From Aulosira sp. ZfuVER01 (GTDB lineage Bacteria; Cyanobacteriota; Cyanobacteriia; Cyanobacteriales; Nostocaceae), in contig JAVRCV020000063.1 of the NCBI GenBank assembly GCA_034530615.2, positions 8,976-72,975 on the forward strand: DNA of 64,000 nucleotides, given 5' to 3'. How positions within the stretch are numbered: the stretch's first letter is position 1; every line of letters starts with the position of its first letter. Below, in pieces: positions 1-24,883 of this stretch. Position numbers and translations under genes: made by a program. The notes beneath the pieces were generated by a model that did not search any database, was not told the DNA's origin, and worked only from the letters and a program-made list of their open reading frames with translations.

Positions 1-2
1 TT

Positions 3-4838: not shown

Positions 4839-4866
4839 TTATACTTTCTGTATAGTTACTAATTAT

Positions 4867-5337
4867 ATGAAAATAAGATTGTTTCATCAGCAAGATGCCG
4901 AGCAAATAGCACAATTATTTCACGAAACAGTGCGTGAAGTTAATATTAGCGACTACTCAAACAATCAAGTCGCAGCCTGGGCACCAGATAATCTATATTT
5001 TAGAGATTGGGCAAAAATTTGCTCAGAAAGATTCACTTATGTTGCTGACGATCGAGGTGTGATTGCAGGTTTTGGTGAATTAGAGTCAAACGGGCATATA
5101 GACTGCTTCTACTGCCATAAAAATTATCAACGAATGGGTGTTGGTAGCCAGATTTATGCTGCAATCGAAGCAAAAGCTGATGAATTAGGAATTAATCGCT
5201 TATACGTTGAAGCAAGCATTACCGCCAAGCCTTTCTTCTTGCGCAAAGGATTCTCCATCATCAACGAACAACAGGTAGAACGTAGAGGAGAAACCTTTAT
5301 TAATTATCTAATGGAAAAGTTTTTAATTCCCCAATGA
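4867..5337 (+). CDS. GNAT family N-acetyltransferase (YafP-like)
   Basis: Acetyl-CoA motif YQRMGVGS and EASITAKPFFLRKGF. Confidence 0.85.
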   Translation: MKIRLFHQQDAEQIAQLFHETVREVNISDYSNNQVAAWAPDNLYFRDWAKICSERFTYVADDRGVIAGFGELESNGHIDCFYCHKNYQRMGVGSQIYAAIEAKADELGINRLYVEASITAKPFFLRKGFSIINEQQVERRGETFINYLMEKFLIPQ

Positions 5338-5413
5338 CAAATTCATTTAACAAACCTCCGCGTCCCTCCGCGCGTACTCTGCGTCACTCTGCGTTAAAAA
5401 AGTCTTCTTTCTT

Positions 5414-6790: not shown

Positions 6791-6818
6791 AGATTGTAAT
6801 CTTCTTGAGAAGATCTAG

Positions 6819-7370
6819 TTAAGCTCGTTTCCCAAGGGAAAATGCCGGACGTTCAGACAAGCGTTTGACATAATCCAATACGGCTGGATAAGCACTCAGA
6901 TCTAGCTTCAGCAGGAGCGAAGCATAACTTAATATAGATCCCACAGCTACATCAGCAACAGTAAATTCATTACCCAGTAAAAAAGGTTGCTGCTCAAAAA
7001 TGTTATTTAAGGGAGTTAACAAACGAGGCATTTCCCGTTCTCGATTCTCTTCTCCAAAAAGTCCCGGCCCCAAAGTAGCATTAGCAAACAATACCCACTG
7101 CGACAAAACACCACGCAACTCCGGTGAAAGTGCTGTTTTGCCATATTTATCGGCAAGATACAACAAAATTGCTCCTGATTCCCAAAGCTGAAAGTCCCCA
7201 TCTACTACTGCTGGAACTTTGCCCATTGGGTTAATTTTCAAATACTCAGGCTGAAGATGTTCACCTGATTGCATATCTAGGAGCACAAATTCGTAGGGAA
7301 TTGCCAATTCTTCTAAATACCACTCGATGATTGACGCACGACTACGAGTACCACCGTAAAGTTTCAGCAT
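6819..7370 (-). CDS. Glutathione S-transferase
   Basis: INPMGKVP, LWESGAILLYL and FTVADV motifs. Confidence 0.92.
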   Translation of the reverse strand: MLKLYGGTRSRASIIEWYLEELAIPYEFVLLDMQSGEHLQPEYLKINPMGKVPAVVDGDFQLWESGAILLYLADKYGKTALSPELRGVLSQWVLFANATLGPGLFGEENREREMPRLLTPLNNIFEQQPFLLGNEFTVADVAVGSILSYASLLLKLDLSAYPAVLDYVKRLSERPAFSLGKRA

Positions 7371-7678
7371 AATTACTTTAGATTCAAGAACTTTGTAAGT
7401 GTGGGAATGCTTTTTAATGTTAACTTTTGTTTTGACCTAGTTACTATTGTGATTCTCAATTCATTGTTTTTGTGACTGGAGATAGAACTTGAGCACAATT
7501 TTCTAGCTGGTTGCGCTTTACAGATAATCTCGCAGCACGCCTGCACCAAAAACTGTAGGCATTGGCAGGTTGCAGTGGTTAACATTGTGGGTGAAAAATA
7601 ATGTTGGGTTTCTGAGCATCAATTTAACCCACCAGAACAGCGATCGCACTTTATCCCTTGACTCTGAGCCAGCAAACA

Positions 7679-8497
7679 ATGAGCAACCTGAACTATAGCA
7701 ACCAGATATTGCACGATCGCTCTTTCAAAGGGCAGGACTTATCTGGTGCAGATTTCAGTGGTGCAGACTTGCGGGGGTGCAATTTTACAGGCGCAACCTT
7801 AATTGGAGCAAACTTTCAGCAGGTGAAAACAGGACAGAGCCAGCGCCAAGTACGTATGTTAGTTGTTAGCACTATAGTCAGTCCAGTGGTTTTATGCGGC
7901 TCTGGTGCGCTCTTTGTGTATCTATTAAGTTTATTGTTGAGCGATCGCGCCATCAACTTCTTAATCGGTTCGCTTCCGGTATTATTTTTTTTTGCTGAGA
8001 TTTTCCTCAGAGATAGTATTAACTTTCACTTTCCCCAAGCCACAACTTTCTTTGGTATAGGAGCTATTAGTATACTATTTGCAGTCATGGTCGCGCTCAC
8101 CATCGGACTTGCTTGTATTGGCTTCTCTGGCTTTGGTAATGGATCTAGCGCTCAAGGATTTTTCTTCTTAATCATGGCGGTTGTTTCTGCGATCGTCACT
8201 TTCCGGATTTTTCAATGGCTGATCCAATCTATTCAAAGTCATCCCGGAACATCTTTTAGAAAAGCGAACTTAACCGATGCAGACTTTAGTTATTCTGAAC
8301 TTAAAAATACAGATTTTTCCCTTGCAGTGTTGACGGGAATCTGTATTTTTAAGTGGGCGATCAAACCTTATACCGATTTTACAAATGTTTATTGTAAATA
8401 TCTTTATTTAGAACCAGAGCAGCAAAATCGCCAACCTGCTGAAGGGAATTTTCAAGCAAATGAATTGGAACGGGTACTAACTCAATTTAGAAGATGA
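7679..8497 (+). CDS. Pentapeptide-repeat membrane protein
   Basis: A(D/N)LXX repeats at both ends flanking about four TM helices; GTSFRKANLTDADF. Confidence 0.8.
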   Translation: MSNLNYSNQILHDRSFKGQDLSGADFSGADLRGCNFTGATLIGANFQQVKTGQSQRQVRMLVVSTIVSPVVLCGSGALFVYLLSLLLSDRAINFLIGSLPVLFFFAEIFLRDSINFHFPQATTFFGIGAISILFAVMVALTIGLACIGFSGFGNGSSAQGFFFLIMAVVSAIVTFRIFQWLIQSIQSHPGTSFRKANLTDADFSYSELKNTDFSLAVLTGICIFKWAIKPYTDFTNVYCKYLYLEPEQQNRQPAEGNFQANELERVLTQFRR

Positions 8498-8729
8498 ATA
8501 TAGAAATTGTATTTGAGTGGTGAAATTAGTTGTGGAGGCAGACAATAAAAGTTACTAGGCAGATGCTTGGAGATTGCTACCCTAAGTATGAGCTTTGTTG
8601 TCTAATGTAGATATTGATACAATCCATTTAGAGCAGTTGGAATGAGTTTAAGCGTTACTGTTTAAGCAAACTAGATTCGTATTCGACGTTTGCCGCTGTT
8701 ACATAATATCGAACTTTTCATTAATACAG

Positions 8730-10484
8730 ATGATACAGTTAGTATTTTTTGTAAAATTAGTTAATCCTGTCTCTGCACATGTATATGATAATGAAAATGT
8801 TAAATTCAGGATACTTTTACCAATGAACAAATCTTTAAAAAAGGCAAATCTAAAAAATTCACTCTTACAAGTCTTTACCAGAAGAAGTACTGTTAAAGGG
8901 TTTTGCCAAATATTTATTGCTTTGGTCTTTACTTCTACTATATTTATAGTAATACCCTATTGGGAACCACAAACAAAAAATGAAAAAGGAGAACTAGTCT
9001 GTCAGGGACAGAAAGTTGCTACTGAAGATTTTATTTGTAGGATTGGTAATTCTAAATTATTGCAACAAATTCAAAACTTCAGCGTTATTTTTGTCGCATT
9101 TTTATTTATTTTAGATACCTTTGAACGCAAGAAACGGGCATACCGTGAGGCATGGAGTTTGATAGATGGAGCTAGAGATTCTGAAACGAGTGGAGCCAGA
9201 ATTTTAGCTCTCAAGGAGTTACAAGAAGATAAAGTTTCTTTGAGAGGGCTAGATGCAGAAAAGGCAGATTTGATGGAAATTAATTTGCAAGGAGCTTTTT
9301 TGGAAAAAGCAAATCTTCGAGGTGCTCTACTTCAACGTATTAACTTAATAAGTGCTAACGTACAAGATTCTGATTTTCGAGAAGCTAACCTGCAAGAAGC
9401 AAAGCTACAGAAGGCTAACCTACGCAGGGTTAAGCTGCAAAGAGCTAAGTTAAATAAAGCTGAGCTTCAGGGTGCAATACTTAGTGGAGCAAATATGCAA
9501 AAAGCAACTTTAGAAGAGACTCAACTGCAAGAAGCTGATTTATCAGGCGTTGACTTTCGAGAGGCAGATTTATGGAGAGCCAATCTTAGCGGAGCTAATA
9601 TAGAATCTGCGATATTTACAGGTGCTAAAAAATTGGATATAGCTCAAGTTCAAAAAGCTAAGAATTGGGAAAAAGCTATATATGGAAAAGACTTTGCCCC
9701 TGAACTAGAGAAATCATTGTTAAGACGAGATTATCCAAGTGAACTAAATATCGAACAATTAAACCAAAAAACAGGAGAAAATGATTTATTACAATCTTTT
9801 ATCAAGCTATTTATGCTATCTGAATCAAGTAACATTCAAGCAATATTAGAATTGCGGAGAAAACTTGATACAGCTATTGAATTGCTGACAATCAATCAAC
9901 CCTTATCTGCTCAGGATAGTGTACAATTAGAATCCATCGTCACAGAAGTAGTTTCGGAATGGTTAAAAGCTAAGAATGCTACTCCTAGAGATGTAGAAGA
10001 TGAACTCAGGGATAAGTTACAGAATTTTCAAGATATTGGCGAGAATGCTAGAAAGAAACTTGAAAAGGAACAGGAGTTTGATCTTAGCGCTAGCGAATGG
10101 TTAAAAATTAGATATGTCAATTTGAAAGATTTAGGAATTAGAGGTTTTCTGAATAAACATCCAGAGATGACAAAGCCAGGAGCTTTGCTTTATTCACCCG
10201 ATCAAATTAATCAACTTAGTGACGATATTGGGAATTGCTTAAATCTTTTAGTAGAAAGCCTTGCCGCACATAACCTTCCTTCTATTGCTAAGGGAACTAT
10301 GCTGAAAATGCCTAAATCAATATACTTGGGTGTACTTCGCGAGATTTGGGAAGAGGTGATGCCAAAATTTATAGAAATTAAAATGGAAAATGAATCAGAA
10401 CCACTATCTGATGGAGCGTTTGAACGATTAAAAGGATATTTCTTTATTCTAAGAAATCAAATCAATCAACTTCAAGACGAATAA
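8730..10484 (+). CDS. Pentapeptide-repeat protein with N-terminal TM segments and unknown C-terminal domain (start uncertain)
   Basis: SGARILALKEL motif followed by a long run of pentapeptide repeats and AKNWEKAIY. Confidence 0.8.
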   Translation: MIQLVFFVKLVNPVSAHVYDNENVKFRILLPMNKSLKKANLKNSLLQVFTRRSTVKGFCQIFIALVFTSTIFIVIPYWEPQTKNEKGELVCQGQKVATEDFICRIGNSKLLQQIQNFSVIFVAFLFILDTFERKKRAYREAWSLIDGARDSETSGARILALKELQEDKVSLRGLDAEKADLMEINLQGAFLEKANLRGALLQRINLISANVQDSDFREANLQEAKLQKANLRRVKLQRAKLNKAELQGAILSGANMQKATLEETQLQEADLSGVDFREADLWRANLSGANIESAIFTGAKKLDIAQVQKAKNWEKAIYGKDFAPELEKSLLRRDYPSELNIEQLNQKTGENDLLQSFIKLFMLSESSNIQAILELRRKLDTAIELLTINQPLSAQDSVQLESIVTEVVSEWLKAKNATPRDVEDELRDKLQNFQDIGENARKKLEKEQEFDLSASEWLKIRYVNLKDLGIRGFLNKHPEMTKPGALLYSPDQINQLSDDIGNCLNLLVESLAAHNLPSIAKGTMLKMPKSIYLGVLREIWEEVMPKFIEIKMENESEPLSDGAFERLKGYFFILRNQINQLQDE

Positions 10485-10724
10485 TGCATAATATATAAAA
10501 ATATTCAGGCAATCTCTATCAGAGAGATATTTGTTTTGAGCAATTGAACCAGATATTAACTTCATATCTGAAATATCTTAAAAGCGCAAAATGCACTTTC
10601 GGCTTTTGCGAATTTGTGCATAGCCTTCTTGGGAAGAAAGCTATGCTATCTTTCTTCCCTTAACCAACATCAAAAAATTCCCGATTTAAAAGTTGCAAAA
10701 TTATAGATAAACAGAATATCTTGT

Positions 10725-10958
10725 TTACCAACATCCGCAACGATACCAAAGATATTGGAATTCATTTTTTAAATCCGGAAAACAATTCAGAACATAACAA
10801 ATATTTTCCTTGTAATCATCTACTTGGTCAGAGTTGTTATCTATAATCTCCTTAATACTAAACAAAATTTGTCTTAGAGCATTGATATCATTGGTTTGCA
10901 ATGCATTGGCAATTTGGAAATTAATATCCAAATCTTCATCAAAATCAAATTGTCTCAT
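10725..10958 (-). CDS. Small acidic hypothetical protein
   Basis: 77-aa AT-rich ORF with ATG start; no family recognised. Confidence 0.4.
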   Translation of the reverse strand: MRQFDFDEDLDINFQIANALQTNDINALRQILFSIKEIIDNNSDQVDDYKENICYVLNCFPDLKNEFQYLWYRCGCW

Positions 10959-11172
10959 CGTTTATTTTTCTGTGAGTAATATTACCTGTGCTGGAAAAAG
11001 ATCAAAGCTATTCAGGCGCAATAATCATATTTCTAGTAACATTAATCACAAAGTATTTGCAGTATCAGGAAGCTTGAGACTTACTTTGCAAAGATAGCTT
11101 AATTCTTTATAAGAGCTTCATAAAGTACTACATGAGGCTACGTATTTACTTGGACTTAAATTTTGATAGTCA

Positions 11173-12339
11173 CTAATTCAACTTGCTGTCACAAGTTTGT
11201 AGAAACGCTAGCTGAGTAATGATTTCATCTTCATTACCAGAGACAAATTTCGCAAAACGCTGTGCTAAAGGTGGTACGAGAACTAAGGGATTACTGAAAC
11301 CAGAAAAAATATGAATATTGGCAAATTCTGGAATAGCACCAATCAAGGGAAGGCGATTAGGGCTAAAAGCAACTAAGCAATGATGCCAAGTTCCTGGTAA
11401 ATTTGCTAAGGCTGGTAAAATTTTTCCAATACTTTCCCTCAGCCACCTTTCACTTTCTTGGGAATTTACTTCAGCATGAGGATCTGTGAGTGTACGGCTA
11501 ATTTGACCTAAGCGCAAACTCCCATATTGAAACTGAATTGCACCTGCATCTAAAATTGGCGGTACTGGCTGATTACCTGGTTCATCCCATAATTCATCAA
11601 CTTGGGTAGATTGTGCTTCTAGTTGAAATCGTTGCAGATTTGCTGGCATTACTAAAGTATTTAACCGCACATCCACAGGTGGGATTTTAATGATTTCTGC
11701 ATGGGTGAAATAGAGTTTGATGGGAATCCCAGCTGATTTTAATAGTTGTCGGCTGAGTCCACCTGCACAAATAACTACATTAGCGCTAGAGAATGTTGCA
11801 GTAGCTGTTGTTACACTATCAGGTTTAATATGTAGGACTTGCGCAATTTGCATTTCACCACCAACACGTAGAAAAGCTTGAATGTAAGCTTGTGTTGTTT
11901 TTTCTGGGTGGATATGACCGTGTTTTACAGTTAAAGCACCGGAAATTGCATCTGGATTTAGCAATGGTTCTAATTCACAAGCTTCTTTGACTGTGAGTAA
12001 ACGGGGAGGAATGGGAAAATTAGCATAAGACGCAGCAGTGATTTCTGGATCGCTAGTACCGGGAATAGTAAGTAATAAATCTAATTCGCGGAATTGAATA
12101 TCAGCGTCTAACTCTTGCGAGAGGATTTGGTAACGTGCGATCGCATCTTCGCACAATTGGCGAGTTAGGGGTGTAGTACCTGACCAATAAGCTAACCCAC
12201 CATAACTATAGCGAGTTGCGTTGTGTGGTGTTGCGTCTTGCTCTAACAACAGCACCGCAAAGCCTGTTTTTGCTAACTCGTAGGCAAGTGTAGCACCTGT
12301 GATGCCACCACCAACAACAATCCAGTCGTAAGTCTTCAT
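11173..12339 (-). CDS. FAD-dependent oxidoreductase (DAO/glycine oxidase family)
   Basis: N-terminal Rossmann VVGGGITG, VVICAG and LPLIG motifs. Confidence 0.85.
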   Translation of the reverse strand: MKTYDWIVVGGGITGATLAYELAKTGFAVLLLEQDATPHNATRYSYGGLAYWSGTTPLTRQLCEDAIARYQILSQELDADIQFRELDLLLTIPGTSDPEITAASYANFPIPPRLLTVKEACELEPLLNPDAISGALTVKHGHIHPEKTTQAYIQAFLRVGGEMQIAQVLHIKPDSVTTATATFSSANVVICAGGLSRQLLKSAGIPIKLYFTHAEIIKIPPVDVRLNTLVMPANLQRFQLEAQSTQVDELWDEPGNQPVPPILDAGAIQFQYGSLRLGQISRTLTDPHAEVNSQESERWLRESIGKILPALANLPGTWHHCLVAFSPNRLPLIGAIPEFANIHIFSGFSNPLVLVPPLAQRFAKFVSGNEDEIITQLAFLQTCDSKLN

Positions 12340-13229
12340 TAATATGTTGCTTGTAAACGGCTCAATAGATATTCTCCCGCAAGGATGGGTGGATAAATTG
12401 GGGAATGATTATTTTGGCAACTCTCAAGACAAGCAATTTCAATATCATCATTAGGATGGCAGAAAAAAGCAACAGAATAGCGAGACTGTTTCACCCTATT
12501 GTCGTTGGGAATTATCACCCGATGCTTAGTTGAGCAAAATACATGATTTGTCCATCGCTGCATTAAATCGCCAGTATTCACGACTACAGTACCAGGAATC
12601 GACGGCGCTGCAATCCATTCCCCAGATGTAGTTTGCACTTCCAACCCGCCAATGTCATCTTGGAACAATAAAGTAATACTGCCATAATCAGAATGCTCGC
12701 CAGCACGTATCTGTCCGGGTTTAGGGGTTGTGGGTAACGGTGGATAGTGGAGCGATCGCAGAGTATGATTTTGTTGATTGTGTCTGGAGGTAAAAAAATC
12801 TTCTGGTAATTCCAACGCTAAAGCAAAAGCCTCTAGCACAGTGTTAGCTAGTTTTGTACAAGCCTCATAAAATGCGAGTGAATTAAACTCAGGTAGATTT
12901 TTACTGTTATCACCTTGTTTACCTATATTCAACGCCTCTTTCAAGTCTCCTGGTTTGTTAGGGTCAAGACGTTCTCTTTCTATGCCAACATAACCAGTAT
13001 TGCTCAATTCATCACTCCAAGCTAGCTGTTGCTTCACAGCTAAAGGTAAATTAAAAAAAGATTGACTTTGTGCAAATATTTGCTCGATCAACTCTTGTGA
13101 TATTCCATGATTTTGCAAGTACATAAAGCCAATTTCATGGCAAGCCTGATAAATTTCTTGAACTACAGTTTGCTTTGTTGTATTATCCTGGCTGAAGGCA
13201 GCTAAATCAATTATGGGGATTTCAATCAT
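12339..13229 (-). CDS. 2-oxoglutarate/Fe(II) dioxygenase (IPNS family)
   Basis: IPIIDL, HSDYGSITLLFQD (HxD), STKHRV and RYS motifs; overlaps the next gene's start (TAATG). Confidence 0.9.
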   Translation of the reverse strand: MIEIPIIDLAAFSQDNTTKQTVVQEIYQACHEIGFMYLQNHGISQELIEQIFAQSQSFFNLPLAVKQQLAWSDELSNTGYVGIERERLDPNKPGDLKEALNIGKQGDNSKNLPEFNSLAFYEACTKLANTVLEAFALALELPEDFFTSRHNQQNHTLRSLHYPPLPTTPKPGQIRAGEHSDYGSITLLFQDDIGGLEVQTTSGEWIAAPSIPGTVVVNTGDLMQRWTNHVFCSTKHRVIIPNDNRVKQSRYSVAFFCHPNDDIEIACLESCQNNHSPIYPPILAGEYLLSRLQATY

Positions 13230-13282
13230 TTTAAGTTTTGGAATTATAAAAATCCGGTTTGAATAAAATTGAGTCTAACATC

Positions 13283-13789
13283 ATGAATATTCGCAGCGAA
13301 ACTATCCAAGACTATCCAGCAATAGCTGAGGTAAATATACTAGCTTTTGGACAAGAGAACGAGGCTAAATTAATTGCAGAAATTCGTGATTCTGACCGCT
13401 ATATTCCAGAACTTTCTTTAGTTGCAGAAGTTGAAGGTTTAGTAGTTGGTCATATTCTCTTCAGCTACATTGACCTGGTAGGTGAAGAAACATTTCAGGT
13501 ACTTGGTTTAGCACCGATGGCCGTGCTACCAAATTTTCAAAGAAAAGGAATTGGTAGCGCACTAGTACAAGCAGGTTTAGAAATAGCAAATAAGCGAAAA
13601 GAAGCAATAGTCATTGTCCTCGGTCATCCCCCATTCTATACACGCTTTGGATTTGAGCCATCAGTTAATTATGCGATCGCCTCTCCCTTTCCAGTTCCAG
13701 AAGAGTTTTTCATGGTTAAGCCACTCCAAAGTTATCAGGAAACCTACAAGGGAAAGATTGTTTATCCACCCGCTTTTGAAAAGGTGTAA
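13283..13789 (+). CDS. GNAT acetyltransferase (YhbS-like)
   Basis: LAPMAVLPNFQRKGIG and VLGHPPFYTRFGF. Confidence 0.88.
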   Translation: MNIRSETIQDYPAIAEVNILAFGQENEAKLIAEIRDSDRYIPELSLVAEVEGLVVGHILFSYIDLVGEETFQVLGLAPMAVLPNFQRKGIGSALVQAGLEIANKRKEAIVIVLGHPPFYTRFGFEPSVNYAIASPFPVPEEFFMVKPLQSYQETYKGKIVYPPAFEKV

Positions 13790-13916
13790 GGCCAATTTGA
13801 AGCAAGAATGCGACAATCTCTTCTCTCTGTGTCTCTGTGGTTTAATCAGACAAAGAGAGCATAATTGTAATTTTTTGGTAAGAATGCTTGTATCTAGTGT
13901 TGTTATTTAGATACTC

Positions 13917-14921
13917 TTGGCAAAAATCACAAATAATATAGTTATGGCTATCCTAAAAGCTTTGTCTGTAACTTCGGCTAGCGTAGTATTGATAATTTGC
14001 AGCCTTGGGGAAACAGTTACCGCTGAAACCTCTACACCTCAGCCTCTGTTTAAAGATGTCGATAGCTACACTACAAAAATCTCTGAAAATAATGACATAG
14101 CTGATATTTACTTTCCTAAAATATCAAGTAAAAAAACTGGTAGCCCTTCATTTCCTATTGCTTTGTTATTACAAGGCGCAAATGTAGATAAATCCAATTA
14201 TTCAAATTTCGCCAGTATAGTAGCTAGCTACGGATTTGTTGTAGTTGTTCCCAATCACAAAGCAAAACGTCCAACGGTTGGTACAGGACTTTTCGCTGAC
14301 ACTTCACAAATCCAAGCTGTGTTAGCGCAAATGAGGCTAGAAAATCAAAATCCTAAGTCACCTGTTACTAACATTATTAATACAGAAAAACTAGGCTTAC
14401 TTGGTCACTCTCTAGGGGGTGCTGTTGGACTATCTGCTATTGCAAACTTATGCTTACCTTTTTTATGTCAAGGTTCTTTTAGCCGTCCCAAACAACTCTT
14501 AGCAGGAGCTTTTTTTGGCGCAAGTCTTCGTAATGTGACTACTCAACAGTACGTTCCTATTCATAATTCTTATATTAAAGTAGCCCTATTACAAGGAAGC
14601 GTTGACAGTATAGGTCTTCCACAAAGAGCGCAGGCAACTTACGAACAAATTCAAGACCCTCCTAAGACATTAATTACTATTTTAGGTGCAAATCACTATG
14701 GCATCACAAATACTAACAATCCTACTGGTGCAAGAGCAGATAGAAATTTCCCATTACTCAAGCAAAATACATCAATAGAAACCATTGCTCGTTGGAGTGG
14801 ATTGTTTTTGCGTGCTAATATTTTGAATGACCAAGTTGCTGGAAATTACATATATTCTACAGGTGATACTTTAGATGAAAATGTGACAGTTATCAACCAA
14901 AATAATAAATATAAGAAATAA
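13917..14921 (+). CDS. Secreted alpha/beta hydrolase (chlorophyllase-like)
   Basis: Signal-like N-terminus, ASYGFVVVVP, GHSLGG nucleophile motif, GANH. Confidence 0.75.
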   Translation: MAKITNNIVMAILKALSVTSASVVLIICSLGETVTAETSTPQPLFKDVDSYTTKISENNDIADIYFPKISSKKTGSPSFPIALLLQGANVDKSNYSNFASIVASYGFVVVVPNHKAKRPTVGTGLFADTSQIQAVLAQMRLENQNPKSPVTNIINTEKLGLLGHSLGGAVGLSAIANLCLPFLCQGSFSRPKQLLAGAFFGASLRNVTTQQYVPIHNSYIKVALLQGSVDSIGLPQRAQATYEQIQDPPKTLITILGANHYGITNTNNPTGARADRNFPLLKQNTSIETIARWSGLFLRANILNDQVAGNYIYSTGDTLDENVTVINQNNKYKK

Positions 14922-14965
14922 TTTTTGTTTTGGTTAGCTTGCGTTTCTAAAACTTTGATTTTTCT

Positions 14966-15802
14966 CTAGATAAATGAGTAGTCGTGCCAGTCACAAATAG
15001 GATGGTAGCCAATCTTTTTGTAGATGTAATTAGAGGTTGGATTTTCCAGATCCGTAAACAGAAAACAGCGATCGCATCCTTGATTTAAAAGTTTTTGGCT
15101 CAAAGCTGCAACACAGGCAGTAGCATAGCCTTTGCCACGATACTCTGGTGGTGTGTAGACTGGGCCAATCCGCGCCGCCGCAGGTAAAGATTGACTACCG
15201 CTAGCCCATGAAACTGGGATGCCATCATCCCATAGATAAATACTCTGCCGCGTCAGTCCGGTATTAACTGCTTGTTCTGCATCTTGAGAAACCACCTCAC
15301 CAACTTCAGCAGCAAACCTTGTAAACCACTCTAATAGCAAAGGGCGATCGCTTTGGGTAGCAAGTCTGAGATAACCATTGACAGTTGCCACAGGTTCTAC
15401 CTGAGTCAACTGGTGGATTCTCATCTCCATCACCCGTCGATAGGACTGTCCTGTCAATGTTTGCCATGTCTGCAAAAACGTTTCTACCTCTGCAACCAGT
15501 CCACTTACACCAGGGTGTTGCTGTGGATCGTCTTGCAAATCCTCAGCAATTAGCCTGACAGCATTTAAATCCTGTGCTTTGGAAAGTATCAGCTTGTATG
15601 GAGGAGTACAGATAGCGACAGCCAGAATCTGGCCTTTTGTTTCCGCGATCGCCAAGTACGGAGGCTCGGGATAACGTTCTGGGTAATGCAATAAATTGTG
15701 TGAGATCCCAAGCAACAAATTATGCTCTGCTTCATACTGGAGTAAGTAATCCTGAGCTTGATGCCAGAATTCCTTGATGTTCTGGAATCGGCGTAATTGC
15801 AT
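14966..15802 (-). CDS. GNAT family acetyltransferase (two-domain)
   Basis: IGPVYTPPEYRGKGYA and FTDLENPTSNYIYKKIGY. Confidence 0.88.
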   Translation of the reverse strand: MQLRRFQNIKEFWHQAQDYLLQYEAEHNLLLGISHNLLHYPERYPEPPYLAIAETKGQILAVAICTPPYKLILSKAQDLNAVRLIAEDLQDDPQQHPGVSGLVAEVETFLQTWQTLTGQSYRRVMEMRIHQLTQVEPVATVNGYLRLATQSDRPLLLEWFTRFAAEVGEVVSQDAEQAVNTGLTRQSIYLWDDGIPVSWASGSQSLPAAARIGPVYTPPEYRGKGYATACVAALSQKLLNQGCDRCFLFTDLENPTSNYIYKKIGYHPICDWHDYSFI

Positions 15803-16152
15803 GATTTACCTCCTGAGTGCGGCTAGATCAGCTCCTTTAGGAAATTCAAAATTACAACCCCATAAATTTATTGTTTGGGATTGTATCCTTTTTCTTCTCC
15901 AGTCAATCCAAAATTGTTTGACGATATGGAACACGGCATTACTGAAAATTTATAACCAATTACCAATTAACACAAATGCCGACCAGTATGTGCTGCTCAG
16001 ATTTGATGCGCAGTTTGAATTTTACAAGAGGTGCGATCGCCAATTTCATCAGGTGAGTTTTAGGAAAATGGGATCGCATTCTCCCAAAAAGTTCTCGATG
16101 AGTCGCGTTAAGCTAATAGTAACTGAGATGATAAATGTAGGTGGGGTGGGTT

Positions 16153-17217
16153 ATGAGCGATCGCACCGTGACTGTGAATAGTATCACTCAAGAGTTACAG
16201 CAAGTCACCGCCGACTTACACCGAGTTAATCCTAGAGCCGGATTACTACGTTTTAGTATACTGGGCTTGATATTTGTGGGGTTAGTCATATTAGCTTGGT
16301 CAGTGCCAAACGGTATTTTATTTGTAGCGGCAACAATGCTGGCGGGAATTTTTTATGGTTTTTGGCTGATTTGTACCCATGATATGACACATCAAACCTT
16401 AACAGGTTGGAAGTGGTTTGATACGATCGTGCCGCGATTGATCAGTTGGCCAATGCTGTGGCCTTACAGTATCTATGCAGAGATACACCGCTTGCATCAT
16501 GGCTGGAATGGCATTGACTTGCGAGATCCAGAAAGACTCCAATGGACTTGGCAAGAATACCAGCAAGCACACCCGATACTGCGTTGGTATGTCAGTCATC
16601 AGTGGCTGTGCGATATTTTTATTTTGGGGGGAATAGGGCTAATTATTAAAACCTTTATTAAAGGTGTACGCTTCCGAAACCTAGCTAGTATGCGGCGACA
16701 GCTAATGCTGGATATTACAGGTATAGTGTTTGTTCAGAGTGTTCTATTAATGTTAGCAATCTTTCATGGAGAATTAGGGCGCTACATTTTATTTTGGTTA
16801 ATTTTAGAACGGATAGTTGGGATCGTAGCGCAGACACGCGATCACTTAGAACACTATGCACTGTGGGGAAAATTTACCACTCACCAATTAACGCAGCTTT
16901 ATGCTTGTCGTAATATTGAGACTAGTTCTTTAGTTGGCTGGTTGATGGGTGGACTAAATTATCATGCAGTGCATCACGCCTATCCTGATATTCCCTTCAA
17001 CCATCTACCACAAGCATTTGAGCGAATTCAAAAGGTGTTAGAAAAGCATAATTTGCCACTCATGAACCAGGAACCTGGTTATCTCAAATCTGCATACTGG
17101 TTAAGTCGTCGTCCATCATTAATTAGTGAAGTTGACTGTTCTCATCCAACAAATCGCCATCAGATGATTCCACTAAACGACCTCTCTGTTTCTGGCAACA
17201 GAAGCCTGGGGGCATGA
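16153..17217 (+). CDS. Membrane fatty acid desaturase family protein
   Basis: Three His boxes HDMTH, HRLHH and HAVHH plus TM segments. Confidence 0.85.
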   Translation: MSDRTVTVNSITQELQQVTADLHRVNPRAGLLRFSILGLIFVGLVILAWSVPNGILFVAATMLAGIFYGFWLICTHDMTHQTLTGWKWFDTIVPRLISWPMLWPYSIYAEIHRLHHGWNGIDLRDPERLQWTWQEYQQAHPILRWYVSHQWLCDIFILGGIGLIIKTFIKGVRFRNLASMRRQLMLDITGIVFVQSVLLMLAIFHGELGRYILFWLILERIVGIVAQTRDHLEHYALWGKFTTHQLTQLYACRNIETSSLVGWLMGGLNYHAVHHAYPDIPFNHLPQAFERIQKVLEKHNLPLMNQEPGYLKSAYWLSRRPSLISEVDCSHPTNRHQMIPLNDLSVSGNRSLGA

Positions 17218-18185
17218 GTATGCGCTTTTCATACTGTGGCGCAATATTCCTCTTGCGGCAGGTAAATAATCTCAACAGTTCGCACCAAAGTAAACTGATA
17301 TGCAATGGACTATACCTTGCCTTGCTGCGATCGCTCATGGATTACAAGCAACAAAAATTTTTTCAGCGTTGGCATTGATATTTCCTTCCTATCTAATGAT
17401 ATTTGTCTACGTATTCTTCACTTTGGATCTCATCCTCAATGGTCGATCAAACATCTGCCAACAGTCTTGTTTTTCTCAGAAAAAATTGGAGAACAGTTTC
17501 TTCACGAGAAATGATATCTGCTCTACCCTCCATTCCTAATTTGATCGTACATTGGTTTTTGCCTTGACCGAAGACTAAACTTTCTGGTGCGATCGCCTAA
17601 TATCTTCTGTACCGGATCGTTGCTGTAATCTAATTTGAGACGAAAATCGGCAGATAATGCGCCGCCAACTACATAAGTAGGACGAATAGCCGTAACTGTC
17701 ACTAAGATCAAAGTTGACAATAACAGTTCGCGATCTGTTTTCGCTATTTGCCAGGGTAATACCTAATTTTTGTCCTCGATGAGACCAATTAGCGTTATCA
17801 ACATTCTTTTCCAATAGGACACCTACTATTTTTTAGTTTTATCTTAAACTTTTAAATTTTAGCAAATTGGTATTTATAAAAGATCTATATATCGGTTAGT
17901 TTAAACATGATTATTTGATGTGATTAGGGGTATTTGCATTAAATTTTTCTGGGATTTATTATTTTATTTTTAATATTTTTCATATAATAATTATCCCCTA
18001 ATCCGATATAAATATGATTTATTAAAACAGAAGTTTTGACAGTTCAATAATAAACTATATAGCCAACGAGTATGCTGATTTTTCAGCTTCCAATTTGTCC
18101 AATGTCTGCGATTCTCAATCAGCATTGGCAGCACTGAAGTTACCAGTAATTTCAAGCTACTCTCGCCGCAATATGACCAGTACAA

Positions 18186-18494
18186 TTGACCGACATCAGG
18201 GTTTTGTTGCATACTATCAGTTCGCAAGACAACTACTCAGGATGTACAGATGTGAAACTTTACCTAGCTAACGTATCTTCAAATCTACCTGACTGGGCAA
18301 CTGTTACCTCAAAAAATTCAGATTTAATTGAAGTGGCAATCAAAGATCATCACCCTGAGTTTCAGTTATTACTTGCTAATTTAGCAACTGAGATTCAGCC
18401 AGGAGTCATAGGAGTGAAAGCAGCTGATTTATGTTCAGCTTTAGTATCACAGATGACACTCCCCAAGTTGAGCGCTCTTGCAGAGATAGCTTGA
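18186..18494 (+). CDS. Hypothetical protein (start uncertain)
   Basis: ORF with plausible protein composition; no family recognised. Confidence 0.35.
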   Translation: MTDIRVLLHTISSQDNYSGCTDVKLYLANVSSNLPDWATVTSKNSDLIEVAIKDHHPEFQLLLANLATEIQPGVIGVKAADLCSALVSQMTLPKLSALAEIA

Positions 18495-18546
18495 TTAATT
18501 TCTGTTATTTTACGCAAAACCATCAACGTTGTTTGAGAGTCGGTTG

Positions 18547-19083
18547 CTACACCTCAATACCTCGTACAAGTGCATCAATTGTTGCTCTAAGCGACTGCAC
18601 GGTGTCGGGATCTATTAGTTCACCTTTACCATTCAGTTTCTTACTGACAAAGGGGACAGTCAGTGATGCTCCCTCGATAATGTTGGCAGCTAAGGCAGTC
18701 AGTGTCAGCACCAAAGAAGCATGGGCTTTGTCAGCACCAAATTCTGATGGAGATGCACTAATCGTAGCAACAGGCTTCCCCACCAACTCGCCCGACGAAA
18801 CAATCCAGTCTAGTGCGTTCTTCAGCACACCAGGCATTCCATAAGCATACTCTGGTGTGCAGATGAGTACACCATCAGATGTTTGAAACTGCTCACGCAG
18901 ATTTCTTACAGATATTGGCGGAGTATCACCATCGAGTTCGGGATTAAAGTGCGGTAAGTCTGCTAATCCTTCATAGATTGTCAGATCAATGCCTTCAGCT
19001 ACAAGTGTTGCAGCAGCCTTTAGCAGCGAAGTATTGGCAGAACCTGGTCTGAGACTTCCGGAGATAGCTAGAATTTTCATCAC
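18547..19083 (-). CDS. NADPH-dependent FMN reductase
   Basis: ISGSLRPGSAN and TPEYAYGMPGVLKNALDW. Confidence 0.92.
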   Translation of the reverse strand: MMKILAISGSLRPGSANTSLLKAAATLVAEGIDLTIYEGLADLPHFNPELDGDTPPISVRNLREQFQTSDGVLICTPEYAYGMPGVLKNALDWIVSSGELVGKPVATISASPSEFGADKAHASLVLTLTALAANIIEGASLTVPFVSKKLNGKGELIDPDTVQSLRATIDALVRGIEV

Positions 19084-19246
19084 ATATCTAACCTGGTTTC
19101 TTCAACTTTTCACGGTAAGCCTGCACAATAGCAAAATACTCGTGGATTTTATCTTTTAATCTAGATTACATCAGTTTTCACTTTGGGAAAATTCTCAAGT
19201 ACTATGTAAGGCTGCATAGTTACTGCAAGATTTTTGTAAGCAATTG

Positions 19247-19291
19247 AGGTGTTGTACTAAGCGTTAGCCAGAACCTGAGAATACTACACCT
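19247..19291. other. Putative site-specific recombination (att) site at the nifE breakpoint
   Basis: AGGTGTTGTACT (19247-19258) and AATACTACACCT (19280-19291) form a 10/12 inverted repeat centred at 19269, where NifE homology starts. Confidence 0.55.
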
Positions 19292-20137
19292 TATGATATT
19301 AACTTAATCGGTGAGTACAACATCGCCGGCGAAATGTGGGGAGTGACACCGCTATTGGAAAAATTGGGCATCCGCGTCTTATCGAAAATTACAGGTGATG
19401 CTCGCTATCAAGAAATTACTTACGCTCACCGTGCCAAGTTGAATGTGATGATCTGCTCGCGCGCATTGCTCAATATGGCGAGAAAAATGGAGGAGCGTTA
19501 TGGCATTCCTTACATTGAAGAGTCTTTTTACGGCATCGATGACATGAACCGCTGTCTGCGGAACATTGCTGCTAAGTTAGGAGATCCCGATCTGCAAGAG
19601 CGTACAGAAAAGCTAATTGCCGAAGAAACTGCTGCTTTAGATTTAGCTCTAGCTCCCTATCGTGCCCGCCTCAAAGGCAAGCGCGTTGTCTTGTATACTG
19701 GCGGTGTCAAGAGTTGGTCAATTATCTCCGCAGCTAAAGACTTAGGCATAGAAGTTGTCGCCACCAGCACCAGAAAAAGTACAGAAGAAGACAAAGCCAA
19801 GATTAAGAAGTTAATCGGTAACGATGGCATCATGCTCGAAAAAGGCAATGCCAAAGAACTACTGCAACTGGTTAAAGATACCAACGCCGATATGTTAATT
19901 GCTGGGGGTCGTAACCAATATACAGCCCTTAAAGCCAGAATTCCTTTCCTCGACATTAACCAAGAACGCCACCATCCCTACGCAGGTTATGTAGGCATGG
20001 TAGAAATGGCACGAGAACTGTATGAAGCTCTCTATAGCCCAATTTGGGAACAAATCCGCAAGCCTGCGCCTTGGGATGAGGAAACGGGGATGTTCAACGC
20101 CTTTGATGAAACCGGCTTAGTAGAAGAGGTTAGCTAA
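19271..20137 (+). CDS. nifE: Nitrogenase FeMo-cofactor scaffold NifE, 3' portion only (interrupted gene)
   Basis: Frame reads [23 protein letters not shown] from 19271 with an in-frame TAG at 19265; YTGGVKSWS and [13 protein letters not shown] motifs; the N-terminal third or more is absent from the window. Confidence 0.93.
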
Positions 20138-21456
20138 TGGCGATCGTTACTGCTCCCAACAAACCACTGACAGTTAATCCCCTCAAGCAAAGCCAAGCTT
20201 TGGGTGCATCTTTAGCCTTTTTGGGATTGAAGGGAATGATTCCCTTGTTTCACGGTTCACAAGGTTGTACTGCTTTTGCCAAAGTCGTCTTAGTACGGCA
20301 TTTCCGGGAAGCAATTCCCCTAGCAACTACAGCCATGACGGAAGTCACTACCATTTTGGGTGGTGAAGAAAATGTGGAACAAGCAATTCTCACTTTGGTA
20401 GAGAAGTCCCAGCCAGAAATTATTGGTATATGTAGCACCGGGTTAACCGAAACTAGAGGTGATGATATAGAACGGTTTCTTAAGGAAATTCGCAAACGTC
20501 ACCCAGAATTGGATCGCCTACCGATTGTCTTTGCACCGACACCAGATTTTAAAGGTGCTTTGCAAGATGGCTTTGCGGTGGCTGTAGAAAGCATCGTTAA
20601 AGAAGTTCCCCGACTTTGTGCAACCAGAATTGAACAAGTGACCATCTTAGCTGGTTCATCTTTTACACCGGGGGATATACAAGAAATCAAGGAGATGGTA
20701 ACTAGCTTTGGACTAGTTCCCATTGTTGTACCCGATTTGAGTGCTTCCTTAGATGGACACCTAGAAGATTCCTATAGTGCGATTACAGCCAGTGGGACAA
20801 CTGTGGCTCAACTGCGGGAAGTTGGCGGTTCTGCCTTCACGATCGCACTTGGTGAAAGTATGCGGGGTGCAGCGCGGATTCTGCAAGAACGGTTTGGCAT
20901 TCCCTACGAAGTTTTTGGACAACTCACAGGATTAGAACCTGTAGACGAGTTTCTCCACGCCTTGGCAATTCTTAGCGGTAACAGCGTCCCCGAAAAATAC
21001 CGCCGCCAGCGTCGCCAACTGCAAGACGCAATGTTAGACACTCACTTTTATTTTGGTGCCAAACGAGTATCCTTAGCCTTAGAACCTGATTTGTTGTGGT
21101 CAGCAGTCCATTTCTTGCAATCAATGGGAGCGCAAATTCATGCTGCGGTGACAACAACGCGATCGCCTTTACTCGAACAACTCCCCATCAAAAGTGTAAC
21201 TATCGGTGATTTAGAAGACTTTGAAGAACTAGCAGCCGACTCAGACTTGCTAATTGGCAATTCTAACGTAAGTGCGATCGCAAAACGCCTTTCCATTCCT
21301 CTCTATCGTTTGGGACTGCCCATTTACGATCGCTTAGGTAATGGTCAATTTACCAAAGTTGGCTACCGAGGCACAATGGAGCTTTTATTTGGCATGGGCA
21401 ACCTCTTCTTAGAAGCAGAAGAAGAGAGAGTTAAACACTTTCACGGAGATTGGTAA
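20137..21456 (+). CDS. nifN: Nitrogenase FeMo-cofactor scaffold NifN
   Basis: NPLKQSQ, HGSQGCT, DAMLDTHF and PIYDRLG motifs; coupled to nifE by TAATG. Confidence 0.97.
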   Translation: MAIVTAPNKPLTVNPLKQSQALGASLAFLGLKGMIPLFHGSQGCTAFAKVVLVRHFREAIPLATTAMTEVTTILGGEENVEQAILTLVEKSQPEIIGICSTGLTETRGDDIERFLKEIRKRHPELDRLPIVFAPTPDFKGALQDGFAVAVESIVKEVPRLCATRIEQVTILAGSSFTPGDIQEIKEMVTSFGLVPIVVPDLSASLDGHLEDSYSAITASGTTVAQLREVGGSAFTIALGESMRGAARILQERFGIPYEVFGQLTGLEPVDEFLHALAILSGNSVPEKYRRQRRQLQDAMLDTHFYFGAKRVSLALEPDLLWSAVHFLQSMGAQIHAAVTTTRSPLLEQLPIKSVTIGDLEDFEELAADSDLLIGNSNVSAIAKRLSIPLYRLGLPIYDRLGNGQFTKVGYRGTMELLFGMGNLFLEAEEERVKHFHGDW

Positions 21457-21593: not shown

Positions 21594-22007
21594 ATGAAAA
21601 TTGCCTTCACGACAAGTGACCGAGTTCATATTAATGCTCACTTCGGATGGGCAAGACAAATTGAGGTTTATGACGTCTCAGATGAGGGATATTCATTTGT
21701 TGAGACTTTGAACTTTGAGGGCGACCTCAAAGAAGATGGTAACGAGGATAAAATCACACCCAAACTAGAAGCGCTAGAGGATTGCACAATTGTTTATGTT
21801 TTAGCAATTGGTGGTAGCGCTGCTGCTCGTTTAATTAAAAAAGGTGTTACCCCAATTAAAGCGCGATCGGAAGAAGAAGAAATCGCAGAAGTGCTAACTA
21901 AATTAGTGCAAACACTTAAAGGTAATCCGCCACCTTGGTTACGTAAAGCTTTAAAGCAAAAAGACACATTATTTGTAGATGAACTCGAAAATGAAGCAAC
22001 AGTATGA
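21594..22007 (+). CDS. nifX: NifX
   Basis: INAHFGWA, AIGGSAAA and PPPWLRKAL. Confidence 0.95.
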   Translation: MKIAFTTSDRVHINAHFGWARQIEVYDVSDEGYSFVETLNFEGDLKEDGNEDKITPKLEALEDCTIVYVLAIGGSAAARLIKKGVTPIKARSEEEEIAEVLTKLVQTLKGNPPPWLRKALKQKDTLFVDELENEATV

Positions 22008-22480
22008 GCATAGATAATAGTGTTAACGGAACCACCAGCACCACAGTCTTAAACTCACCTTTTCTTAAAGCCATAGTCCAACAAATCCGGGGACAAGATA
22101 CTTATGGAACTTACCGGAAGTGGTCTGATGACTTAATTCTCAAACCTTATGTTGTCACCAAACAAAAGAAACGCGAAATTTCTCTTGACGGTGAAGTAGA
22201 TCCGTTGACTAAAGCACGGATTATGGCATTTTACCGGGCTGTAGCCGCTTGTATTGAACAGGAAACAGGTTTAATTTCCCAGGTTGTGGTTGATTTAAGC
22301 CATGAAGGATTTGGCTGGGTACTTGTCTTCTCTGGTCGTCTTTTGTTAGTTGCCAGAACTTTACGAGATGCTCACCGCTTTGGGTTTGATTCCCTAGAAA
22401 AAGTCGCAGAAGAGGGAGCCAAACTCATAGAAAAAGGCGTTGATTTAGCAAAACGCTTCCCCGAAGTTGGCAAGCTTTAA
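22004..22480 (+). CDS. NifX-associated nitrogen fixation protein (DUF269)
   Basis: QIRGQDTYG, SHEGFG and RDAHRFGF; position after nifX. Confidence 0.88.
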   Translation: MSIDNSVNGTTSTTVLNSPFLKAIVQQIRGQDTYGTYRKWSDDLILKPYVVTKQKKREISLDGEVDPLTKARIMAFYRAVAACIEQETGLISQVVVDLSHEGFGWVLVFSGRLLLVARTLRDAHRFGFDSLEKVAEEGAKLIEKGVDLAKRFPEVGKL

Positions 22481-22582: not shown

Positions 22583-22801
22583 ATGGTGCAAGCAGAAGAT
22601 AAAAGTATTGAGGAGCTAAAAGGTAAAATCAGAAGACTCAATAGTAAAGCAGGTCAAATGAAAATGGATCTGCACGACTTAGCCGAAGGGCTACCAACAG
22701 ACTTTGAAAAACTAATGGATGTTGCGGCTGATACTTATGAAATCTATCGCCAATTAGATGAACTTAAGAAACAGCTAAAAAAATTGGAGAAGGGTGAATG
22801 A
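22583..22801 (+). CDS. Rop-like nitrogen fixation protein (DUF683/CCE_0567 family)
   Basis: KMDLHDLAEGLP motif. Confidence 0.88.
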   Translation: MVQAEDKSIEELKGKIRRLNSKAGQMKMDLHDLAEGLPTDFEKLMDVAADTYEIYRQLDELKKQLKKLEKGE

Positions 22802-23115
22802 GCCGGACTATTGATGAGTTCAAGCAGCTCGTAGATGCAGAGGAATTCTTTATTTTTTTTAACCTGCCCTACGACCAAAAATTTGTGAATGTAAATCGGT
22901 TACATATTTTGAAGAAATTCTCCCAATATATGAGAGAAATTGATGAGAATTCTCCTGACTTAAACGCAGAAGAAAAACTCAATCAATATGCCATTGCTTT
23001 GCAAAAAGCCTATGAAGTATTTCTTGAATCAACACCTCAAGAACAAAAGCTATTCAAGGTGTTTAACGAGAAGCAAAAAAATGTAGTCAAGCTGACAGAA
23101 ATCACTTCTGATTAG
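22798..23115 (+). CDS. nifW: Nitrogenase-stabilising protein NifW
   Basis: AEEFF, VNVNRLHILKKF and LFKVF. Confidence 0.93.
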   Translation: MSRTIDEFKQLVDAEEFFIFFNLPYDQKFVNVNRLHILKKFSQYMREIDENSPDLNAEEKLNQYAIALQKAYEVFLESTPQEQKLFKVFNEKQKNVVKLTEITSD

Positions 23116-23125: not shown

Positions 23126-23926
23126 GTGGTAAACCTGACGCCTACCGAATTAGAACGCTATAGTCGCCAAATGATGCTCCCTAACTTTGGCGAACTAGCT
23201 CAGAAGCGCCTGAAGTCAGCGACGGTTCTGGTTACAGGTGTGGGGGGATTAGGCGGTACGGCGGCGCTTTACCTAGCAGTAGCGGGCGTTGGGCGACTAA
23301 TCTTAGTACGGGGTGGTGACTTGCGGCTAGATGATATGAATCGTCAAATCCTCATGACAGACGATTGGGTAGGTCAGCCAAGGGTATTCAAAGCTAAAGA
23401 AACTCTGGAAGCGATTAATCCTGATGTCCAAGTGGAAGCAGTTCATGATTACATCACCCCGGAAAACGTAGACGCCCTGGTACAGTCCGCTGATATGGCT
23501 CTTGACTGCGCCCACAATTTTACCGAGCGCAATTTGTTGAATGCAGCTTGTGTGCGTTGGCGTAAGCCGATGGTGGAGGCAGCAATGGACGGGATGGAGG
23601 CTTACCTGACTACGATTATTCCTGGTGTAACTCCTTGTTTGTCCTGTCTGTTTCCAGAAAAGCCTGATTGGGATAGGCGTGGCTTTTCAGTTCTCGGCGC
23701 TGTTTCTGGGACACTAGCTTGTCTGACAGCTTTAGAAGCCATCAAGCTGATCACTGGGTTTAGTCAACCGTTACTGTCACAACTGTTGACAATAGACCTC
23801 AGCCGGATGGAATTTGCTAAACGCCGTTCTCACCGCGATCGCTCTTGTCCAGTATGTGGTAACAGTGCGCCCTGGAGATACGCGCAATCAGATTCAATGG
23901 AACCCACTGGTAATTGCACAAAATAA
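23126..23926 (+). CDS. hesA: HesA (ThiF/MoeB family)
   Basis: ERYSRQ, GVGGLGG and two CxxC motifs; nif context. Confidence 0.93.
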   Translation: MVNLTPTELERYSRQMMLPNFGELAQKRLKSATVLVTGVGGLGGTAALYLAVAGVGRLILVRGGDLRLDDMNRQILMTDDWVGQPRVFKAKETLEAINPDVQVEAVHDYITPENVDALVQSADMALDCAHNFTERNLLNAACVRWRKPMVEAAMDGMEAYLTTIIPGVTPCLSCLFPEKPDWDRRGFSVLGAVSGTLACLTALEAIKLITGFSQPLLSQLLTIDLSRMEFAKRRSHRDRSCPVCGNSAPWRYAQSDSMEPTGNCTK

Positions 23927-24023
23927 TCAGCTTATACCAATTCGTAATTCGTAATTACGAAAGTCAATAGCAAATACCCCACCTGTAAACAGAACACCTT
24001 ATCGCTACAAATCAGGAGAATTG

Positions 24024-24395
24024 ATGACTGTAACTTTGACAGAAAAAGCCGAATTTCGTTTGCGGGCGTTCTTAGTCGCCTCTGCCCCCGATCCTAACGG
24101 TGCGACTAAAGGCGTCCGCATTTCTGTAAAAGACGGTGGTTGCAGTGGCTATGAATATGGAATCGATATTACTAGCAAGCCGCAACCAGACGATTTGGTA
24201 ATTGAGCAAGGCAAGGTGTTACTTTACGTTGATGCTAAAAGCGTACCTTTATTGAAAGGAGTTGTGATCGATTTTGTTGATGGGGTAATGGAAAGCGGCT
24301 TTAAGTTTACCAACCCTAATGCAACTGATAATTGCGGTTGTGGCAAGTCTTTCAAAGCAGGTGATTGCACACCTGATGGTGTACCTTGCAGCTAA
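24024..24395 (+). CDS. hesB: HesB, IscA-type Fe-S carrier
   Basis: GGCSG and CGCGKSF. Confidence 0.93.
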   Translation: MTVTLTEKAEFRLRAFLVASAPDPNGATKGVRISVKDGGCSGYEYGIDITSKPQPDDLVIEQGKVLLYVDAKSVPLLKGVVIDFVDGVMESGFKFTNPNATDNCGCGKSFKAGDCTPDGVPCS

Positions 24396-24583: not shown

Positions 24584-24883
24584 ATGGCTACCTACCAAGT
24601 TAGATTAATCAACAAAAAGGAAGACCTCGACACCACAATTGAAGTGGATGAAGAGACTACCATCCTAGAAGCAGCAGGAGAAAATGGTATTGATTTGCCT
24701 TTCTCTTGCCACTCAGGGTCTTGCTCTAGTTGTGTTGGTAAAGTTGTTGAAGGTGAAGTAGATCAATCCGATCAAATCTTCTTGGATGATGAGCAAATGT
24801 CTAAGGGCTTTGCTTTACTTTGTGTTACTTACCCCCGTTCTAATTGCACAATTAAGACTCATCAAGAACCATATCTTGTCTAG
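24584..24883 (+). CDS. fdxH: Heterocyst [2Fe-2S] ferredoxin
   Basis: [12 protein letters not shown] with the FdxH-type His; follows hesB. Confidence 0.95.

Follow-up and report, generated by a model that had tools for sequence, protein, structure and literature searches.

The sole nifE gene of Aulosira sp. ZfuVER01 is split in two, and the DNA between its halves, bounded by putative attachment sites of a large serine recombinase of the XisF family, is very probably the nifE element variant described by Hilton et al. in 2016 (PMC4874684). In the present study, the 3' part of the gene was found in a stretch of 64,000 nucleotides, which we call the window (G000:C63:8976-72975, on contig JAVRCV020000063.1), and the 5' part on another contig of the same genome. 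The genome (G000) is a draft assembly of 83 contigs and 8.03 Mb, 99.99% complete with a contamination of 0.3%. Genomes of the same taxonomic family are numbered here with G, contigs with C and extracted loci with L. We infer the recombination itself, its tie to heterocyst development and its topology. Unless the nifE rearrangement happens, FeMo-cofactor, and thus nitrogen fixation by Mo-nitrogenase, would be impossible in this strain, and annotation pipelines will miss this nifE or label it a pseudogene. With this case the nifE elements grow beyond the two known from the 2016 list, and the established picture of heterocyst genome rearrangement is unchanged. Less ordinary are the architecture of its attachment sites, the differing orientations in relatives and the extent to which the nif cluster is fragmented.

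The window had been examined before from its letters and open reading frames, and this sequence-only reading had noted that NifE homology starts abruptly at about 19269-19271 behind an in-frame stop codon. The same was found with the NCBIfam model of nifE (TIGR01283), which matches the window from 19271 to 20134 (model positions 195-459, 406.7 bits), and from the core onward the 3' half aligns without gaps with intact nifE of the same genus. The Pfam scan also agrees with that reading in two further respects. Downstream of the break, nifN, nifX, nifW, hesA, hesB and fdxH were all described as intact, which they are, together with a DUF269 gene (Table 1). Upstream, no nifHDK, 5' nifE or recombinase had been seen in the preceding 19 kb, and none of these was found by Pfam among the ORFs of at least 80 aa in the 28 kb upstream on C63, i.e. 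in the window and the remaining 9 kb of the contig. The genes in this part of the intervening DNA encode ABC/MacB-type transporters, GNAT acetyltransferases, pentapeptide-repeat proteins, a fatty-acid desaturase, an FMN reductase and similar proteins. In addition, a 72-aa ORF lies between DUF269 and nifW (window 22583-22801).

The 5' half was obtained by a Pfam Oxidored_nitro search of the whole genome, which returned a fragment at C56:42155-42586 (model positions 1-142). The ORF that contains it (C56:42023-42619) has a NifE-like start, runs to ...LLEYVVGTAEP and then continues into unrelated sequence. This nifE part matches TIGR01283 at positions 2-185, and on the NifEN fusion model the two halves abut exactly (2-177 and 178-457). 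Joining them in silico at the core gave a NifE ORF of 474 aa with no stops, which is the length of three of the four intact same-genus orthologues (G021-G024; G021 differs). Against the intact nifE of these four genomes, the 5' half is gap-free through the core (63-65 of 67 nt identical) and the 3' half is gap-free from the core on (58-63 of 67 nt), and the element-side sequences show identity at chance level (13-20 of 53-60). Thus, the sequence-only reading was right in placing a 5' nifE elsewhere in the genome, ending just before E-P-E and sharing a CA(GAA) core with the window, since the 5' half ends in VVGTAEP and CAGAACC is present at both junctions.

Codon differences were counted against the intact orthologues of equal length, with G021 excluded for its other length. 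The synonymous and nonsynonymous differences from the three orthologues were 33:2, 32:3 and 24:3 for the 5' half and 37:5, 42:6 and 48:7 for the 3' half. By this measure both halves are under purifying selection, which argues against a decaying pseudogene. Furthermore, no sequence in this 99.99% complete genome reaches the TIGR01283 cut-off, and only the two split halves have nifE as their best family; therefore, the split gene is the sole nifE. Two simpler accounts of the broken gene were rejected, namely a second functional nifE, because no sequence in the genome reaches the cut-off, and a simple deletion of the 5' part, because this part is present on C56.

The recombinase gene starts 61 bp inside the left junction, at the far end of the element, where it had been expected from the window. 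Its 468-aa product scores 503.4 bits against the NCBIfam model recomb_XisF (NF041201, cut-off 375) and carries the resolvase catalytic domain (PF00239, 98.7 bits) and the Zn_ribbon_recom domain (PF13408). The first 135 residues align with residues 1-130 of gamma-delta resolvase, including YARVST and DRLGR. The Recombinase domain PF07508 was not reported in this protein at E up to 1e-6 and was found in the paralogue of the nifK element. The ORF has its full length; identity is 94% with the nearest orthologue and only about 40-45% with other XisF-family genes. No xisH/xisI pair was found next to the recombinase or anywhere on the three nif contigs C22, C56 and C63, and ten adjacent xisH-xisI pairs lie elsewhere in the genome (e.g. 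C64:33997-34727 and C76:5308-6044); absence of the pair near the sites is compatible with an action in trans. A promoter-like CTTACA-17-TATGAT with an upstream TG was seen in the P' arm just before the recombinase gene (C56:42592-42620, i.e. L011:2592-2620). Since promoter-like sites in that region number 7 against a shuffled expectation of 6.9, this site carries no weight. The recombinase could also be expressed by read-through from the 5' part of nifE.

At the left junction (attL, on C56) the order is 5' nifE, core, P' arm and recombinase gene, and at the right junction (attR, in the window) it is P arm, core and 3' nifE. The crossover dinucleotide is predicted from the sequence to be GA at window 19271-19272. 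In relatives the stretch common to both junctions goes down to GAACC or GAAC, with GA retained. Conservation of the P and P' arms extends across genera, and the P arm of attR is shared by the attR sites of G017, G018, G019, G025, G026 and G352 (GGTGTTGTAnTAAGCGTT...). Exchange of the arms yields an attB made of nifE sequence and an attP made of the joined element ends, and in both reconstructed sites the best dyad axis lies between the G and the A of the core. With 24-bp arms flanking GA, 15 of 24 positions are complementary in the reconstructed attP, which was reached at 73 of 200,000 random genomic positions. For the reconstructed attB the value is 12 of 24 (2,422 of 200,000 random positions, p about 0.012), and this dyad taken alone is only modestly unusual. 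The outer motif ACACC stands at +19..+23 in both P arms, against +14..+18 in the B' arm. In all four pairings of P with B arms, agreement between the outer motifs peaks when they are displaced by exactly 5 bp (10, 10, 8 and 7 of 14), and other shifts (0 to 8) gave at most 8 of 14. For serine integrases, a 5-bp difference of this kind is reported, with the outer motifs nearer the centre in attB than in attP (PMC3783163). These four putative half-sites have the attP/attB architecture of serine integrases, including the 5-bp signature known from the phage enzymes, and with their counterparts in relatives they form a collection of serine-integrase att pairs that is diverse by nature and ready to use.

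The sequence-only reading had put the break at the centre of a 10/12 inverted repeat with its right arm in nifE coding sequence. This repeat is present: 19247-19258, within the P arm, and 19280-19291, within the B' arm, are complementary at 10 of 12 positions and enclose a spacer of 21 nt. When 100,000 positions were drawn at random from this genome, 613 had a repeat at least as good centred no more than 3 nt away; the repeat is thus unusual, but it is not decisive alone. That the dyad marks a serine-recombinase site is supported by the attP/attB architecture, whereas its axis had to be moved. The axis of the site is GA at 19271-19272, and the centre of the repeat (19269) lies 2.5 bp to the left. 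This offset arises because the motif of the P arm pairs with a motif of the B' arm that is 5 bp nearer the centre.

Table 1. Features at the two nifE junctions and in the neighbouring part of the window (positions without a contig name are those of the window)
Feature	Position	Strand	Evidence or remark
Right-hand end of the DNA separating the nifE halves	1-19268; 28,243 bp to C63 start	.	Pfam, synteny
Putative P arm of hybrid attR (element side)	19241-19270	+	outer motif ACACC at +19..+23 from GA
In-frame TAG closing the nifE frame directly upstream of the break	19265-19267	+	window read and translation
Core CAGAACC	19269-19275 and C56:42579-42585	+	nifE nt 557-563, codons 186/187
nifE 3' part including stop codon (20135-20137)	19269-20137	+	residues 186-474 of the rejoined protein; NCBIfam, alignment
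Putative B' arm of attR (nifE coding)	19273-19302	+	outer motif ACACC at +14..+18
nifN, intact	20137-21456	+	start overlaps nifE stop; Pfam Oxidored_nitro 379 bits, model positions 1-397
nifX, intact	21594-22007	+	Pfam
DUF269, intact	22004-22480	+	Pfam
nifW, intact	22798-23115	+	Pfam
hesA/ThiF, intact	23126-23926	+	Pfam
hesB (Fe-S_biosyn), intact	24021-24395	+	Pfam
fdxH-type 2Fe-2S ferredoxin (Fer2), intact	24584-24883	+	Pfam
nifE 5' half	G000:C56:42023-42585	+	ends ...VVGTAEP
XisF-family large serine recombinase, 468 aa	C56:42647-44053	same direction as nifE	Pfam, NCBIfam

Hilton et al. listed nifE among 22 interrupted orthologues, with two elements of one variant (PMC4874684). In Table B of that survey, element #4 of Scytonema hofmanni PCC 7110 lies in nifE with TGAACC at 558, has a length of 9.549 kb and carries a serine xis gene 66 bp from its beginning in the + direction. 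The gene and the site are the same here, with CAGAACC at 557-563 counted from this gene's own start, where the survey counts on a reference gene. The recombinase likewise sits at the start of the element, and the present interruption is therefore a further member of the published variant. In G352, which has an 85%-identical recombinase orthologue, a direct element of about 9.5 kb corresponds in architecture and size to the 9.549 kb given for PCC 7110. Unlike the PCC 7110 element as tabulated, the intervening DNA of our strain is at least 62.7 kb against 9.5 kb, holds unrelated genes and extends over two contigs. In the same survey, heterocyst elements are given lengths from 1.3 kb to nearly 1 Mb (mean 41.5 kb), and cargo is described as highly variable within an element variant.

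The fdxN element of Anabaena/Nostoc sp. PCC 7120 with its recombinase XisF is similar in that the recombinase passes as XisF equivalog, the element is large, the core is short and the target belongs to the nif cluster. It differs in target gene and core, and in that xisH/xisI are not adjacent here; XisH and XisI are stated to be required for fdxN excision (PMC4874684). In addition, the recombinase resembles the phage serine integrases described in PMC3783163 (A118/LI, Bxb1 and phiC31) in its domain set and catalytic motif, and its sites resemble theirs in the quasi-palindromic att sequences, the non-palindromic central dinucleotide and the 5-bp shift of the B arms. Unlike the case of the phage enzymes, the relevant reaction here is presumably attL x attR recombination under developmental control and not integration, and the cargo holds no phage genes.

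Full-length orthologues of the recombinase (76-94% identity) were found in 38 of the 388 other genomes of the family, and the next best matches were at most 49% identical. With this genome, the lineage is present in 39 of 389, about a tenth of the family's species genomes. The best 29 foreign recombinase loci were inspected along with the genome's own. At 27 of these 29, a nifE half ends or starts at the same site beside the start of the recombinase gene. The 5' nifE ends at the same residue just before the recombinase start at 23 foreign loci and our own, and the 3' nifE adjoins it divergently at four (G025, G324, G345 and G349). In this flipped type (loci L060/L061 of G025, L039, L041 and L042), the core is reversed relative to the recombinase-proximal arm, and the reconstructed attP of G025 contains a perfect 17-bp inverted repeat with a 14-nt spacer centred on GA. 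A nifE half was not found at two of the 29 loci: in G028 the contig begins 70 nt before the recombinase gene, and in G338 both flanks are present. The latter locus (L040, G338:C98:791-5194) has an 84%-identical recombinase orthologue, and neither of its 1.5-kb flanks contains a nifE half. When 15 genomes of the genus were searched with the 5' half, nine including this one had nifE cut at the site with an open frame of 200-209 aa, five had an intact nifE (482-496 aa), and none was found in G028 with this query.

The layout of the two halves varies among these relatives, so that one recombinase lineage at one nifE site goes with elements that differ greatly in cargo, size and orientation. Among complete genomes, G017 (about 6.3 kb) and G352 have direct repeats and a recombinase gene at the element start. 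The repeats are also direct in G025 (about 42 kb), G324 (about 29 kb) and G349 (about 109 kb), but there the recombinase gene is at the far end and the core is flipped relative to it. In G345 the halves are on different contigs. In four complete genomes of the same genus (G018, G019, G026 and G029), the 3' half lies upstream of the 5' half in inverted orientation, at a distance of about 10 kb, with an otherwise identical att structure. In G018 (L059, G018:C1:1916000-1930500), with likewise arrangements in the other three, the inverted 3' nifE-nifN part is about 10.3 kb upstream, and the segment between the halves of this type holds the nifK-element recombinase and a small nif island. Only inversion can restore nifE in these four genomes, which makes inversion a live option for our strain. 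Inverted 3' parts of nifE are also reported in Calothrix NIES-3974 and PCC 6303 (PMC11249958), and the PCC 6303 element is entered as 'odd assembly' with halves facing opposite ways in PMC4874684. The cases named in these sources belong to other genera.

A maximum likelihood tree of 30 recombinases, with the nifK-element paralogue as root, agrees for the most part with the host genera, which suggests a long vertical residence of the recombinase. The flipped type falls in two separate clades of this tree.

In our strain, the ends of C56, C63 and C22 have no mutual overlaps and their terminal 60-mers are unique; the sole end overlap is one of 30 nt between the left end of C22 and C66. With the halves on separate contigs without overlapping ends, the assembly is compatible with either orientation, with different distances and with one replicon or two. 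Direct sites would be separated by no less than 62,691 bp (34,448 bp on C56 and 28,243 bp on C63), and if the layout is inverted as in G018, at least 70,821 bp would flip. The sequence-only reading had proposed an element or inversion of over 19 kb carrying ordinary metabolic genes, without choosing between the two. The cargo of C63 and C56 is not syntenic with five complete genomes of the same genus, where its matches are scattered over the chromosomes. In the whole-genus comparison the cargo on both sides is likewise scattered in relatives; therefore, synteny gives no clue to the topology.

We propose that attL and attR are brought into synapsis while heterocysts differentiate. The recombinase, possibly aided by a directionality factor, would then make 2-bp staggered cuts at the central GA, exchange the half-sites and religate them. 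This would yield a nifE of 474 aa without interruption, running on into nifN-X-W-hesAB-fdxH, and in addition an attP-like site. With direct repeats, at least 62.7 kb would leave as a circle; with sites inverted as in the four relatives of the same genus, the part that flips would be at least about 71 kb long. As routes of nifE restoration, excision and inversion have roughly even chances, and the locus offers a testable case of one versus the other. It may be, and we hold this tentatively, that there is no simple excision, and that nifE is restored by inversion or by an ordered multi-step cascade together with the nifK, nifD and fdxN events. This reading is based on the at least 63-71 kb of strain-specific, ordinary-looking genes between the sites and on a 1.4-kb nif island between outward recombinases. 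Under it, the orientation flip of the core against the near-palindromic arms would have arisen at least twice among the relatives. If true, this would be a natural example of a serine integrase switching orientation through its central dinucleotide. An ordered multi-step nif cascade has so far been demonstrated only for Calothrix NIES-4101, in which a study of 2024 reported nif restoration by excisions plus inversions (PMC11249958).

It is improbable that the interruption is an integrative mobile element of phage or island type, for which nifE is merely attB and which is excised sporadically without developmental control. Such an element would suit the att architecture, which is of the phage serine-integrase type, the wide variation in cargo from strain to strain and the two insertion orientations among relatives. 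However, no phage or conjugation genes were found by Pfam in the 62.7 kb of cargo, and the residence suggested by the recombinase tree is long and vertical. Moreover, an element in the only nifE would abolish diazotrophic growth if it were not reliably removed in heterocysts, and in the same cluster fdxN, nifD and nifK contain elements of the type classically tied to development.

A shade less probable again is that the interruption has become fixed as a relic, with nifE functionally dead and a strain that makes no FeMo-cofactor. Without a directionality factor, serine integrases do not normally recombine attL with attR, and no gene for such a factor was found near the sites. The at least 62.7 kb of ordinary-looking chromosomal genes between the halves, non-syntenic with relatives, would also fit an old fixed rearrangement. 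The coding sequences point the other way: both halves keep an open frame with mostly synonymous differences from intact orthologues, and the recombinase ORF is of full length with 94% identity to the nearest orthologue. The att arms have, in addition, been conserved across genera, and elsewhere the nif cluster is whole or cut only at clean recombinase-associated sites.

An artefact of assembly or binning, in which the halves are truly contiguous or come from different organisms, is highly improbable, for although the assembly is a draft of 83 contigs and the sequencing runs X1-X3, which contain all sampled words of window 18600-20000 and are possibly its source data, carry metagenome labels, both breakpoints lie 28-42 kb inside contigs, the same junction structure is present in complete genomes of relatives, contamination is 0.3% and both halves show the same level of identity to same-genus orthologues. 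A scan of metagenomes with 21 nt of the 5' junction gave one match, to an unrelated low-complexity contig, which is a chance hit.

Other genes of this nif cluster are also interrupted. The nifK gene is split between two contigs: its 5' part on C22 ends in ...DLWHLRSLL, its 3' part on C56 starts with ...LLFTEPVDLLIGNSYGKY, and the two junctions share the 8-mer GTTCTCTT (C22:77015-77022 and C56:41187-41194, i.e. L011:1187-1194). An XisF-family recombinase gene of 520 aa (C56:39584-41146, minus strand) starts about 40 bp from the nifK junction, and the two parts of nifK are separated by at least 70.7 kb of DNA spread over both contigs. Between the nifK and nifE junctions lies the nif island of 1.4 kb (C56:41187-42585, i.e. 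L011:1187-2585), which consists of the nifK 3' end, a Mo-nitro_C gene and the nifE 5' half. It is flanked by two outward-reading recombinase genes, and the same island is present in G018.

The nifD gene is interrupted by an element of 19,063 bp (C22:56307-75380; L014/L015) bounded by the 11-mer GGATTACTCCG, which we take to be the classical XisA repeat. At the right end of this element, a 472-aa ORF (C22:73833-75251, minus strand) has no Pfam or NCBIfam match. The fdxN gene is interrupted near its 3' end (C22:10908-50569), where the 11-mer TATTCTCAGAA occurs at C22:10908 and 50559, 39,651 bp apart. Its right junction is adjoined by an XisF-family gene (C22:48967-50529, minus strand), and a second gene of this family lies inside the element (C22:42614-44092, plus strand). 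Two further XisF-family genes were found at C12:13736-15235 and at C57:1036-2369, the latter on a 2.5-kb contig and with an internal TAG. Finally, stretches of 45-130 nt with dozens of scattered same-genus matches at 75-98% identity, at window positions of about 530-720, 1242-1350, 1600-1665, 4100-4160 and 18057-18184, are probably dispersed short repeats.
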